A stretch of DNA of 20,094 nt, taken from IMG/VR virus record IMGVR_UViG_2563366990_000010, positions 1 to 20,094 of that record; one strand, 5' to 3'. Positions 7,099 through 11,097 of this stretch are shown here, in pieces. The notes under the pieces were generated by a model. The model was not told the DNA's origin. It searched no databases and saw nothing but the letters and a program-made list of their open reading frames with translations. This stretch comes from a virus. Taxonomy: Duplodnaviria; Heunggongvirae; Uroviricota; Caudoviricetes. Position numbers and translations under genes: made by a program. Every line of letters starts with the position of its first letter. The first letter of the stretch is position 1.

Positions 7099-7146
7099 GG
7101 CCAATCTGTTCCGTTTGGCTTCCAGCGTCCTGCTGTTGAATTGAAG

Positions 7147-7209
7147 ATAACCTAAGTTATCTGGTTGCGCAATAACTATATTTATCATTTTATGAAAAAC
7201 GTTATAAAT
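7147..7209. promoter_or_regulatory. OL operator cluster overlapping the leftward early promoter
   Basis: 14-bp sites of form ATAAC-N4-GTTAT: ATAACCTAAGTTAT (7147-7160), ATAACTATATTTAT (7172-7185) and a degenerate third near 7196-7209, about 24-25 bp centre to centre. Same consensus as the OR sites. Confidence 0.5.
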
Positions 7210-7280
7210 GACTGATAACAAAAATATTTTATTTTTTGTGGTATCCGCGTGATATTTTCAAGGGGGAAAGGCTGATTGTT

Positions 7281-7654: not shown

Positions 7655-8362
7655 TTACCAGCTATGTGATGACCAGAACACTCGCCCTATGATTCTTACG
7701 TTTTTGTAGAATTCTTCTCTGTTCATTACTTCATCAGGATACTCTTCGCGGTTTATCGATCTGATAATTACCGATGTTGGCGTGGCTATGAGCGTTTTTA
7801 CCCTTAACAAATCAGCTTGGCAAATTGCATATGTTTTACCATCCCTGATGCTCGTATCTTGCGTGTTTACCCCCACCACATCACCATCATGGAGTGTTGG
7901 CTCCATGCTTTGCCCAACAACCCTGACCAACTTTGCCGCTTTTTCTGGAACTCCCATTTTTTTCAGGTAATAGCGCCTAAAAACTAGAGAGAATTCTGCG
8001 GACTCCTCCAATGCACAACTTCCTCCGCCAGCTGAAAGTGAAATATTTAGAAGGGGGAGCGCAACAAATTCGTCATTATCATTTTGATGATCATCCCAGG
8101 CGATAGCTTTTAAAGATGATTCCCGAGCATTAGATGGCTCTTCTGCGCTCTGTGGTCTCATTGACCCTATACCAGAGCTTAGCCATTCAGGGCGAACTCT
8201 TAACGCGTTGGCTAATTCGACCATTTTACGTGATCCGGTTGTTTTACCAGATGACATCTTTTGTATGGCTGGTTGTGATACCCCCACCATGTCTGCAAGT
8301 TGTGCTTGTGACAACCCGGCTGAACTCATGGCGGCATTTAGTCTTTCTGCGAATGTTTTCAT
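7655..8362 (-). CDS. cI: CI-like prophage repressor (N-terminal HTH plus C-terminal S24 LexA-like peptidase domain), 235 aa
   Basis: N-terminal HTH (LSQAQLADMVGVSQPAIQKM). C-terminal autoproteolysis domain with a G-Q-S-M-E-P serine motif and a downstream lysine; a candidate Ala-Gly cleavage site (LSAGGG). Divergent from the cro-like gene across the operator region. Confidence 0.9.
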   Translation of the reverse strand: MKTFAERLNAAMSSAGLSQAQLADMVGVSQPAIQKMSSGKTTGSRKMVELANALRVRPEWLSSGIGSMRPQSAEEPSNARESSLKAIAWDDHQNDNDEFVALPLLNISLSAGGGSCALEESAEFSLVFRRYYLKKMGVPEKAAKLVRVVGQSMEPTLHDGDVVGVNTQDTSIRDGKTYAICQADLLRVKTLIATPTSVIIRSINREEYPDEVMNREEFYKNVRIIGRVFWSSHSW

Positions 8363-8373
8363 ACCTGTAATCT

Positions 8374-8436
8374 ATAACCACGGTTATCAAAAGTAAAACA
8401 ACAATTGTTATTGCTCTGGTGTATAACTCATGTTAT
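8374..8436. promoter_or_regulatory. OR tripartite operator between cI and cro
   Basis: Three 14-bp sites of form ATAAC-N4-GTTAT: ATAACCACGGTTAT (8374-8387), ACAACAATTGTTAT (8398-8411) and ATAACTCATGTTAT (8423-8436), with 24-25 bp centre-to-centre spacing, lying between the divergent cI and cro starts. Confidence 0.6.
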
Positions 8437-8472
8437 TTTTGGTTATGCTTTATTTGCTGTAGAGGTATGCTC

Positions 8473-8697
8473 ATGAATTTAGTGATTCAGCGAGCCTTGA
8501 ATATTGTTGGCAGTCAAAAACGACTTGCAGCTGATTGCGGCGTATCACAGCCCGCTGTTCATAAATGGTTGCGAGGCGGAAAAGTTTCTCCTGAAAAAGT
8601 TTTCGCTATCGTTAATGCCACCAATGGTCAGGTTAAGGCTTACGAAATTCGCCCGGACTTACCGCACCTGTTTCCTCATCCGAACCAGGCTGAATAA
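8473..8697 (+). CDS. cro: Cro-like HTH regulator, about 74 aa
   Basis: Small HTH protein (LAADCGVSQPAVHKWLRG) divergent from cI. I place the start at the ATG at 8473, with AGAGG 7 nt upstream; the ORF track starts at 8419. Confidence 0.75.
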   Translation: MNLVIQRALNIVGSQKRLAADCGVSQPAVHKWLRGGKVSPEKVFAIVNATNGQVKAYEIRPDLPHLFPHPNQAE

Positions 8698-8813: not shown

Positions 8814-9110
8814 ATGTCACAAACAAGTTACAGCAAACTGTCACAGCGCGATATCGATCGCGCTGAAACGGATTTACTTATCAACCTGTCAGCTCTGACG
8901 CAAAGGGGACTGGCGAAGATGATTGGCTGTCATGAATCGAAGGTCAGTCGTACCGACTGGCGATACATCGCGGCTATTTTATGCGCGTTTCAGATGGCAT
9001 CTGATATCAGTCCGATCAGCCGGGCTTTCCAGCATGCCATTAACGTTCATGCAAATAAAAAACGTCCGGTTGGGGCCGGACGTTCTGAGCAAATCCTGAT
9101 GAATATCTGA
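8814..9110 (+). CDS. cII: CII-like transcriptional activator, 98 aa
   Basis: The C-terminus (KKRPVGAGRSEQILMNI) resembles lambda CII as I recall it; central HTH; positioned between cro and the replication genes. Confidence 0.8.
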   Translation: MSQTSYSKLSQRDIDRAETDLLINLSALTQRGLAKMIGCHESKVSRTDWRYIAAILCAFQMASDISPISRAFQHAINVHANKKRPVGAGRSEQILMNI

Positions 9111-9273
9111 TATTCAGGCAGGGCATGGAGCAATACACGGGAATAATTCTGCCACATCTGGAAGAATTTCGCCAGCAACAACACCAACCGCAGCAGCCTG
9201 AAGCCGATTGGGTTAACCCGGAAATTACGGGGACCGTCTGCGGTATGGAGTAAATCTTGTATGCGAGGGGACT

Positions 9274-10350
9274 ATGCGTAATTACGCAACAATTTCACCT
9301 CAGTTCTGGTTAGGCGATACAGGGCGAAAACTCAGGAAGTCTGGTCCGGAATGTATGGTAGTGGCGTTGTATATGATGACCTCGCCTCATTCCAATATGC
9401 TGGGCCTTTATTACCTGCCTGTTTTGTACATTGCTCACGAAACCGGACTTGATCCTGAAGGGGCTTCTAAGGGGCTTCAAATGGCTTGCGAGGCTGGTTT
9501 TTGCAGCTATGACCATGATTCTGAGGTTGTATGGGTGCATGAAATGGCAGCATGGCAGGTTGGTGAATCGCTGAAACCTGGCGATAACCGTTGTGCTGGG
9601 GTAAGAAATGAATATTCCGCGTTGCTGGAAAATCCTTTTTTATCATCCTTTTATGATAGATATAAGGATGATTTCCACCTGGATGTCAGACGTGAATCAT
9701 GTCGGAAAATTGAAGCCCCTTCAGAGCCCCTTTCAAGCCAAGAACAGGAACAGGAACAGGAAAGAGATAAAACCCTTCTGGTCCATGGCGAAAAAATCGC
9801 CACGGACCCACTGGTGGATTCTTGTCCCGTTCTGACTGAACGTCCAGGACCAGCTGGCATGACACCGGAAGCAGATTCCGGGCGTTGTGTGCAGCAGGTG
9901 CTGCTCGTCGAACCGGAGCAACAACACCAACCGCAGCAGCCTGAAGCCGATTCCGCGATGAGCGGGAAGCCGATTGGGTTAACCCGGGCGATGCCGGGAC
10001 CGTCTGCGGGACGAGTTGATTATCCTGACGTGTTCGAACGGGTCTGGCGTGAATATCCGCATCGGGCAGGGTCAAACCCGAAGAAATCCGCGTTCAATGC
10101 CTGGAGGGCCAGATTACGCGAAGGGGTGTCACCGGATGTCGTGCTGGATGGCGTGAGGCGTTACGCAAGATACCTGGAGGCTACCGGGAAAGCGGGAACT
10201 GAATTTGTTCAGCAGGCATCGACGTTTTTTGGCCCGAACAGGAATTTCGAAAATCCGTGGTCGCTGCCGAAGGCTGGCGCAGTCAGCCAGCGTTGCGTGA
10301 ACCACATTTCTGAACCGGACACCGAAATTCCGCCGGGGTTCAGGGGGTAA
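9274..10350 (+). CDS. Replication initiation protein (O-like position), 358 aa
   Basis: Sits in the O slot immediately upstream of the DnaC-like loader. Contains a (CAGGAA)x3 tandem repeat, an AT-rich 9-bp inverted repeat, and a segment that is duplicated upstream of the gene. Confidence 0.6.
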   Translation: MRNYATISPQFWLGDTGRKLRKSGPECMVVALYMMTSPHSNMLGLYYLPVLYIAHETGLDPEGASKGLQMACEAGFCSYDHDSEVVWVHEMAAWQVGESLKPGDNRCAGVRNEYSALLENPFLSSFYDRYKDDFHLDVRRESCRKIEAPSEPLSSQEQEQEQERDKTLLVHGEKIATDPLVDSCPVLTERPGPAGMTPEADSGRCVQQVLLVEPEQQHQPQQPEADSAMSGKPIGLTRAMPGPSAGRVDYPDVFERVWREYPHRAGSNPKKSAFNAWRARLREGVSPDVVLDGVRRYARYLEATGKAGTEFVQQASTFFGPNRNFENPWSLPKAGAVSQRCVNHISEPDTEIPPGFRG

Positions 10351-10356
10351 TCAGCC

Positions 10357-11097
10357 ATGAAAAACATTTCGACAGGAGGGATTCTTGAACGGGTGCGCCG
10401 TCTGGCACCACCGCACGTGGCAGCACCGTTCCGGACGACCGACGAATGGCGGGAATGGCAACTGGCTGAGGGCCGTAAGCGCAGCGAGGAAATTAACCGC
10501 CAGAATCATCAGGCGCGGGTTGAAAAAATCCTGAACCGTGCGGGCATCCAGCCGCTTCACAGGAAGTGCTCATTCGAGAACTACCGGGTGCAGAACGACG
10601 GTCAGCGCCATGCTCTGAGCCAGGCGAAATCCATTGCCGATGAATTGATGACCGGGTGTACAAACTTCGTGTTCAGCGGTAAACCTGGTACCGGTAAAAA
10701 TCACCTGGCAGCAGCGATTGGCAACCGGCTGATGGCGAAGGGGAGAAGCGTGATTATCGTCACCGTGTCCGATGTCATGAGCGTGTTGCATGACGGCTAT
10801 GACAACGGCAAGTCCGGTGAGAAATTTTTACAGGAACTTTGCGGGGTCGACCTTCTGGTCCTGGATGAAATTGGCATGCAGCGGGATACGCGCAACGAGC
10901 AGGTCATACTGAACCAGATCGTCGACCGCAGAACGGCATCACTGCGCACTGTCGGAATCCTGACGAACCTGAATCACGCAGCGATGAGCACACTCCTCGG
11001 CGAGCGGGTGATGGACCGTATGACCATGAACGGTGGTCGTTGGGTGAGTTTTAACTGGGAGAGCTGGCGATCAAACGTTGGGCGTCAGGGTATGTGA
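10357..11097 (+). CDS. DnaC/IstB-like AAA+ helicase loader (lambda P functional analogue), 246 aa
   Basis: Walker A motif GKPGTGKNHLA and Walker B motif LLVLDEIG; begins 7 nt after the O-like stop. Confidence 0.85.
   Translation: MKNISTGGILERVRRLAPPHVAAPFRTTDEWREWQLAEGRKRSEEINRQNHQARVEKILNRAGIQPLHRKCSFENYRVQNDGQRHALSQAKSIADELMTGCTNFVFSGKPGTGKNHLAAAIGNRLMAKGRSVIIVTVSDVMSVLHDGYDNGKSGEKFLQELCGVDLLVLDEIGMQRDTRNEQVILNQIVDRRTASLRTVGILTNLNHAAMSTLLGERVMDRMTMNGGRWVSFNWESWRSNVGRQGM

Follow-up and report, generated by a model that had tools for sequence, protein, structure and literature searches.

A predicted replication origin with conserved 11-bp iterons inside the initiator gene of an Eru4-type lambdoid prophage

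Where does replication begin in a lambdoid prophage of the Shiga-toxin type that carries an Eru4 replication module, and which DNA sequences would be read there? That an origin can lie within the gene for its initiator, its iterons next to AT-rich DNA, is a classical principle. A first-pass annotation of the locus studied here had placed a candidate origin at positions 9631-9762, inside a gene that it called O-like. The window, i.e. the whole stretch of DNA that was analysed, comprises 20,094 nt of the virus record IMGVR_UViG_2563366990_000010. As seen from open reading frames and profile matches, a lambdoid immunity and replication module surrounds the element in question:

7655-8362, minus strand: CI-type repressor
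8419-8697: Cro/YdaS-like gene
8814-9110: cII
Between cII and the replication gene: small open reading frame
9274..10350, plus strand: replication initiator gene of the Eru4 module, 358 aa (open reading frame and translation; matches to phrog_1701/25210/3729)
10357..11097, plus strand: DnaC-like helicase loader, presumably the initiator's partner (Pfam IstB_IS21, 3.6e-19; phrog_50)
After the DnaC-like loader: DUF1627 gene

The loader is also matched by the NCBIfam models PRK12377 (5e-149) and DnaC (1.8e-94). Positions 9100-10400 match Escherichia phage phiSTEC1589-Stx1c and two Shigella phages, 75/02 Stx and POCJ13, with 98-99% identity. In comparison with 75/02 Stx (NC_029120/KF766125), cII-rep-dnaC shows 97.9% nucleotide identity over 1301 nt, and the N-terminal domain of the initiator is 99.4% identical to its counterpart. 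In the classification of Stx phage replication regions, Shigella phage 75/02 Stx is the type phage for Eru4 (PMC8951638), and the gene order of the Eru4 module described for Stx phages is the same as here (PMC8951638; Fagerlund/Llarena et al.). The module is the Eru4 replication module, both of its defining genes being near-identical to those of the type phage. The Eru classification is based on proteins; the first Eru4 protein is listed as function unknown, the second as a putative helicase (PMC8951638). The word "iteron" is absent from the text of PMC8044961 and PMC8951638, and "origin of replication" from that of PMC8044961. In the literature searched, the coverage of which was incomplete, we found no description of an origin of Eru4 or related phages, and a search for the motif words described below returned only unrelated primer matches. 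Among 5,426 complete E. coli genomes, 78 have the segment, in every case on the chromosome. Plasmid records with the initiator gene numbered only six, either large or mislabelled, and there was no small plasmid or minimal replicon among them; a 32-kb Klebsiella "plasmid" record is a chromosomal/prophage contig. A scan for promoters and terminators gave no excess of sites in the region.

A repeat search revealed two clusters of an 11-bp near-palindrome, GAAGGGGCTTC, inside the initiator gene, both of which had been missed in the first-pass annotation. The motif unit can be written as GAAGG-G-GCTTC, with GAAGS as half-site. The clusters are 255 bp apart and flank an AT-rich dip:

9457..9478, plus strand: candidate left iteron pair, GAAGGGGCTTC / TAAGGGGCTTC, in 11-bp register (exact 10-mers at 9458 and 9469)
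9625..9680, no strand: least stable duplex segment, candidate DNA-unwinding element, containing a T-run and an inverted repeat (9642-9672)
9712..9744, minus strand (inverted with respect to the left pair): candidate right iteron cluster, GAAGCCCCTTC / AGAGCCCCTTT / half-unit CAAGCCAAGAA, in 11-bp register

The 10-mer AAGGGGCTTC is found in direct orientation at 9458 and 9469 and reverse-complemented at 9712. These three exact copies, all within 9458-9721, are the only ones in the 20-kb window, in which about 0.04 would be expected. The copy at 9723 is inverted and in register, with two mismatches, and a half-unit, AAGCC, follows the pair in register, which gives 2.5 copies in the right cluster; its consensus reads gAAGCCCCTTc.AAGCCCCTtcgAAGCCAaGAaCAG. 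The left pair codes for E62-L68 of a helix comprising residues 61-73, the right cluster (nt 439-471 of the gene) for E147-Q156 in a disordered linker. DnaA boxes (TTATCCACA) gave zero matches within one mismatch between 9000 and 10500.

Are these repeats a property of the DNA or of the protein that it encodes? Relatives of the N-terminal 156 residues are found in Klebsiella (72% identity), Acinetobacter (62%), Ralstonia (56%) and other Escherichia phages (54%), and the N-terminal domain is represented by 127 clusters in a large protein collection. We fetched 75 genomic loci with 39-74% identity from Enterobacteria, Burkholderiales, Acinetobacter, Rhizobium, Acidobacteria, Planctomycetes and others; the non-redundant set comprised 64 genes (<85% identity; gene GC 0.39-0.68) in 269 kb of loci. 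Six phage relatives with 54-73% protein identity have the core word paired at gene nt ~183-205 and again at ~438-465, and the right cluster is directly followed by an (EQ)n repeat. Over the 64 loci, two bins stand out for matches with at most one mismatch, nt 100-199 with 121 and nt 400-499 with 143, against a background of ~1-2 per 100-bp bin.

The codons that make up the motif are close to fixed in the 64 genes, in the left cluster (GAA 98%, GGG 100%, GCT 80%, AAG 100%, GGG 89%, CTT 90%) as well as in the right (CCT 96%, AAG 100%, CCC 98%, AGC 100%). Normalised codon entropy is 0.17 in motif columns versus 0.84 in other conserved columns (Mann-Whitney p = 1.5e-7); ordinary conserved residues have a codon entropy of 0.7-2.4 bits. 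The 27 GC-rich genes use CTT in 81% of cases at L68, versus 14% of all Leu codons, and GGG in 100% at G63, versus 27% of all Gly codons. The right cluster is inverted in the window, in Acinetobacter, in Ralstonia and in most lineages, where it encodes peptides such as EAPSEPL and QAPSKPL, and direct in Klebsiella, Fraca and LMessi, where it encodes EGASKGL; the DNA word is retained while the peptide differs between lineages. In Acinetobacter relatives, a non-coding gap of 58 bp just before the start codon contains an additional motif pair (-37 to -15), again in 11-bp register and, in one species, in the opposite orientation. The most divergent member of the set, L071, is the one clear outlier: here helix and word are both changed, the latter to GAAGGGGTCC.

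It could be argued that there is no DNA-level signal at all and that the repeats arise from a conserved, repeated peptide together with codon bias, and the AT-richness from amino-acid composition. The peptide of the left cluster, EGASKGL, is nearly invariant and the conservation of this cluster is therefore partly at the level of the protein; codon positions 1-2 do contribute to the AT-richness. However, the synonymous positions are fixed against the codon bias of the host, the inverted right cluster spells the same DNA word with a different peptide, copies of the motif exist in non-coding DNA, and third-position AT is elevated between the clusters. This makes a mere by-product of coding scarcely credible. 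The motif is under strong selection at the DNA level, independent of the encoded peptide and at fixed positions of a gene that stands first in replication modules.

DNA-level conservation could still be exerted through the transcript. In the window and in most lineages the two clusters are complementary (87% over 23 nt) and could pair in the mRNA as a long-range helix, or, AAGGGG resembling a Shine-Dalgarno sequence, they could control translation in an SD/anti-SD-like manner. However, the clusters of Klebsiella, Fraca, LMessi and other lineages have the same orientation and are unable to pair, and the upstream copies of Acinetobacter occur in both orientations. Among the 46 loci with an inverted right cluster, 38 deviations from the core were counted on the left and 44 on the right, of which only four were shared, and there was no compensation. 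The region gave zero matches to Rfam families. A long-range RNA helix is rejected because of the same-orientation lineages and the lack of compensatory change, and we consider an RNA-based explanation as a whole highly improbable. Independent deviations rather fit copies that would be held separately to one recognition consensus.

The AT-rich stretch claimed in the first-pass annotation is real (GC 0.33 at 9600-9680), as is the T-run in it (TTTTTT at 9636-9641). Among 40-bp segments of the gene, the one starting at 9635 forms the least stable duplex, with a dG of -43.2 versus a window mean of -55.8 +/- 3.9; this site ranks third among the distinct low-stability sites in the 20 kb and, at 9635-9675, is located 37-77 bp from the right cluster. 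All six phage relatives have their AT maximum at the corresponding place (gene nt ~341-381). Averaged over the 64 genes, codons 113-137 are enriched in AT at synonymous and at non-synonymous positions. Third-position AT at codons 113-140 is 0.404 versus 0.279 in the rest of the N-terminal domain and is higher in 54 of the 64 genes; the direction is consistent across phyla, but the evidence is at most as strong as the corresponding p-value (Wilcoxon, 4.6e-10) indicates, because the statistic ignores phylogeny and thus shared ancestry. In addition, the amino-acid composition of helix 123-134 accounts for much of the AT-richness. Altogether, synonymous sites have a part in keeping the DNA between the clusters AT-rich.

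This bears on the question whether the clusters are only regulatory, serving autorepression, a transcriptional roadblock or another regulator of phage or host, with replication starting elsewhere. The motif pair over the 5' leader/promoter region in Acinetobacter is an arrangement characteristic of operators and autoregulated Rep proteins and speaks for such a role. However, regulation alone does not predict that fixed clusters flank a conserved AT-rich stretch of low stability with AT-enriched synonymous sites, and phased, multi-copy, dyad-symmetric sites at 11-bp spacing within the initiator gene match the architecture of phage origins such as that of lambda. An exclusively regulatory function is therefore unlikely in our opinion. 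Iteron systems usually combine autoregulation with origin function, and a regulatory role may well hold in addition to a role as origin.

What, then, of the other repeats in the region? The first-pass annotation had built its case for an origin on two of them, a perfect inverted repeat and a tandem hexamer. The inverted repeat exists as described, with 9-bp arms (ATCATCCTT at 9642-9650 and AAGGATGAT at 9664-9672) and 13 nt between them, preceded by the T-run; it can be extended to arms of 13 nt that are 92% complementary (one mismatch) around a loop of 5 nt. Perfect 9-bp inverted repeats with loops of 3-20 nt occur five times in the window versus 1.7 +/- 1.6 expected. As single-stranded DNA the hairpin has a folding energy of -7.4 kcal/mol (z = -2.7), and four of 200 shuffled sequences fold equally well; it exceeds chance only weakly. 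As a conserved feature of an origin it was rejected: over the 64 relatives the best inverted repeat averages 5.7 nt in the homologous segment versus 5.9 nt in other segments of these genes taken as controls. The repeat is lineage-specific and near chance expectation, and it lends the origin no support.

The hexamer, (CAGGAA)x3, is also present, although at 9742-9762 and not at about 9736-9756 as had been given:

9742..9762, plus strand: (GAACAG)x3 / (CAGGAA)x3 repeat encoding the flexible linker EQEQEQE, adjoining the candidate origin

It is in frame, GAA CAG coding for E Q. An (EQ)n linker is found in nearly all relatives, with n from ~3 to >15, and its codons vary freely (GAA/GAG 54-73%, CAG/CAA 59-81%). 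As an origin repeat it was rejected, since it is an in-frame coding linker whose codons are not frozen, and the support that it had been thought to give falls away.

The linker suggests another function for the conserved DNA. The right cluster together with (GAACAG)n could be a recombination "linker" at which C-terminal domains and helicase modules are swapped by homologous recombination. The C-terminal domains that follow the (EQ)n linker diverge widely among relatives, the partners encoded downstream vary, and the protein studied here has a C-terminal domain that is 79-83% identical to E. coli "phage replisome organizer" proteins that bear a different N-terminal domain. But recombination does not account for the existence of a left cluster, for phasing at 11 bp, for dyad symmetry or for the non-coding copies in Acinetobacter, and it leaves unexplained the near-100% fixation of codons across phyla; the codons of the (EQ)n linker, which would be equally usable for recombination, are not frozen. 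We regard this explanation as quite improbable; domain shuffling is more likely a consequence than the cause of the conserved DNA.

If the motif is part of an origin, which protein would read it? The initiator consists of a predicted winged-helix N-terminal domain (aa 1 to ~140), a disordered linker (~141-235) with the (EQ)n and a Q/P-rich stretch, and an all-helical C-terminal domain. Pfam gave no match for the whole protein (E <= 0.01) and none for residues 1-156 (E <= 10), including Phage_rep_O and Phage_rep_org_N. Homology to lambda O was rejected: hhalign of the N-domain family gave a probability of 0.1%, and BLASTP only a 23-aa segment at the level of chance. The gene is "O-like", as the first-pass annotation had put it, by position only. 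The AF2 model of the N-terminal domain (pLDDT 86.4) has a winged-helix topology (H25-36, E45-47, H50-57, H61-73, E77-80, E85-88), in which helix 61-73, at the position of the recognition helix in the model, is encoded by the left motif pair itself. Among the predicted viral structures of BFVD, its nearest neighbours carry the names replisome organizer, replication initiator, RepL and initiator A (E 1.5e-4 to 1e-2, TMq 0.4-0.67), and a fold search of the PDB returned only generic winged-helix (wHTH) regulators (best E 0.035). On the basis of this model and the searches, the initiator family is new, with a predicted winged-helix N-terminal domain that has no match in Pfam and is unrelated to lambda O. 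The right cluster is located in the low-confidence linker of the model, which plausibly explains why either orientation is tolerated.

The model of the C-terminal domain is too poor for use (pLDDT 48.9); the domain ends in a DnaT-like tail:

10261..10347, plus strand: C-terminal tail of the initiator, ...VNHISEPDTEIPPGFRG, resembling the C-terminal tail of E. coli DnaT

The tail matches positions 155-179 of NCBIfam DnaT (E 0.0019) and the PDB entries 6aep, 2ru8 and 9zbt (E 0.002-0.01). An assignment as full-length DnaT was rejected: only the last 25-29 residues match PRK02854, with 17.9 bits against a cut-off of 201 bits, and the phmmer matches in the PDB are limited to the tail as well. The annotation of relatives as "primosomal protein I" is due to this DnaT-like tail. 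The next gene varies among distant loci: three have a DnaB-type helicase, others a DnaC/IstB-type loader, a weakly lambda-P-like protein or an unknown protein; in Fraca and LMessi a primase/helicase is found downstream. The sole constant companion of the motif is the N-terminal domain, and since the two always travel together, the N-terminal domain is the most economical candidate for the binder.

Taken together, this Eru4-type lambdoid prophage probably has its origin of vegetative replication in the region ~9455-9745, inside the gene of its own initiator. The general idea of the first-pass annotation, an origin within the initiator gene with repeats beside an AT-rich unwinding region, thus holds up in silico, but the repeats cited for it do not carry it, and the range of 9631-9762 has to be shifted, as the supporting motifs lie partly outside it. 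We infer that the initiator binds the motif, that unwinding follows from binding there and that the helicase is recruited by way of the C-terminal domain. According to this model, the winged-helix N-terminal domain would bind the near-palindromic 11-bp iterons, probably as dimers, in two clusters, each with its copies one helical turn apart. By bridging or wrapping both clusters, a nucleoprotein complex would stress the DNA between them, and the least stable stretch, which lies at ~9625-9680 and thus 30-90 bp leftward of the right cluster, would melt. Recruitment of the phage's DnaC-like loader with host DnaB would follow, through the C-terminal domain and its DnaT-like tail.

It is tempting to speculate that initiator and origin are locked together: the left iterons encode the presumed recognition helix, and a change of the site would alter its reader, and vice versa. 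Iterons normally diverge fast. Such a mutual constraint of site and reader, which we put forward as possible rather than probable, would explain why a single 11-bp word is nearly unchanged from Enterobacteria to Acidobacteria and Planctomycetes.

New in this system are the initiator family, the 11-bp word, the split and mostly convergent layout around the AT-rich stretch and the near-identity of the word across phyla. It is also an unusually clean case of DNA-level selection overlaid on a coding sequence. Eru types serve to classify Stx phages, and links exist between them and both toxin output and virulence. A predicted origin with its motif offers a handle on prophage replication driven by induction, on the building of replicons and on the annotation of such modules in other bacteria.

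How does the predicted origin compare with known systems? The lambda ori consists of four 19-bp iterons and an AT-rich region inside gene O; the O protein binds there and P delivers DnaB. The annotated iterons of lambda are at nt 349-433 of the O gene. As in lambda, the candidate origin is located within the coding sequence of the initiator, near the junction of the N-terminal DNA-binding domain and the linker, and repeated, dyad-symmetric, phased sites lie adjacent to an easily melted AT-rich stretch. The gene also follows cII directly in a lambdoid early-right operon, and the gene for helicase loading is next, as in lambda. Unlike in lambda, the iterons have 11 bp instead of 19 bp and form two clusters, 255 bp apart and mostly convergent, with the AT-rich stretch between them, whereas the iterons of lambda are contiguous with the AT-rich region on one side; moreover, the partner of the initiator is a DnaC-type AAA+ loader and not P.

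A second point of reference is the replisome organizer of the SPP1 G38P type (Phage_rep_org_N), for which the origin oriL lies inside gene 38. As we propose here, the present system would share with it an initiator with a winged-helix N-terminal domain, repeats in its own gene and a handover to a loader or helicase. In addition, the neighbours of the N-domain model and the relatives of the C-terminal domain carry the annotation as replisome organizers. Unlike G38P, the N-terminal domain has no sequence match to Phage_rep_org_N, and binding sites, hosts and partners are different.

In iteron-regulated plasmids, a winged-helix Rep protein (RepA of pPS10, pi of R6K) binds phased direct repeats beside an AT-rich region, and extra inverted copies over the rep promoter serve autorepression; the upstream pair in Acinetobacter is suggestive of autorepression sites of this kind. 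Plasmid iterons usually have 17-22 bp, are located outside the rep gene and are quick to diverge, whereas the word described here has 11 bp, is intragenic and is nearly identical across phyla. As judged from these sequence comparisons, the best-supported reading is that of an iteron-type origin which would follow the logic of lambda with an initiator of an unrelated family.

In several relatives from Acinetobacter, a pair of the 11-bp motifs that make up the predicted origin is present in non-coding DNA, at -37 to -15 from the rep start codon and immediately in front of the Shine-Dalgarno sequence.

L002:2461-2485, with homologous positions in L015, L016, L019, L023, L026 and L043 (loci of Acinetobacter relatives): upstream non-coding motif pair

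In Acinetobacter sp. ANC 3929 the pair is reversed in orientation. It is likely that this upstream pair is an autoregulatory operator. The most divergent member that still bears repeats is L071, a locus from an Ignavibacteriales MAG (41% identity), in which a variant word, GAAGGGGTCC, is found at 2432-2554 and the 11-bp register is kept. Since the presumed recognition helix of the initiator (residues 61-73) is changed alongside the word, this is a hint that protein and site co-vary. No clear 11-bp motif was seen in loci L074 and L079.

The second copy of the left motif pair in the window contains AAGGGG, a Shine-Dalgarno-like sequence, followed 6 nt downstream by an in-frame ATG (Met70; 9469-9483). 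An internal start at this position is unlikely because the methionine is not conserved among the relatives.

Part of the rep linker is found a second time upstream of the gene, within a small ORF (9126-9254).

9174-9243 and 9917-10009: duplicated unit of ~70-90 bp, upstream copy and rep linker copy

The two copies match over 36 nt (100%) and 49 nt (84%), and the unit includes the 10-bp palindrome GGGTTAACCC. The upstream unit is present once in the window and twice in tandem in the Stx phages 75/02 Stx and phiSTEC1589, a 90-bp indel; in the Klebsiella and Fraca relatives the unit is missing altogether. Possible explanations for the unit are a scar left by recombination or an additional binding site. 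One Klebsiella locus, L165 (NZ_CP069825.1), is a 32-kb linear record filed as a plasmid, which carries chromosomal genes (cytosine permease) together with a prophage arm bearing the rep replication module; it is probably a wrongly labelled chromosomal contig.

The segment with the highest AT content and the least stable duplex of the entire window (~7130-7250; AT 0.79 across 80 nt) lies left of the repressor gene. A terminator-like structure is present in cII.

9059-9086 (minus strand) and 9057-9118: hairpin with T-run resembling an intrinsic terminator, inside the 3' end of cII

The prophage sRNA AgvB matched the region of the cII 3' end only below threshold, reaching 20.7 bits (E 0.53) where the gathering score is 56. 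In lambda, this position is occupied by the oop antisense RNA.

The C-domain of the initiator (9976-10347) is 79-83% identical to E. coli proteins that are annotated as 'phage replisome organizer' and have another N-domain, which indicates that domains have been shuffled at the (EQ)n linker. The final 26-29 residues (...VNHISEPDTEIPPGFRG; 10261-10347) match E. coli DnaT at its C-terminal tail (PDB 6aep, 2ru8, 9zbt). This match, together with the gene order rep-dnaC of the phage, which parallels that of the host dnaT-dnaC operon, suggests that both proteins share the tail as a peptide for docking to the DnaC/DnaB machinery.
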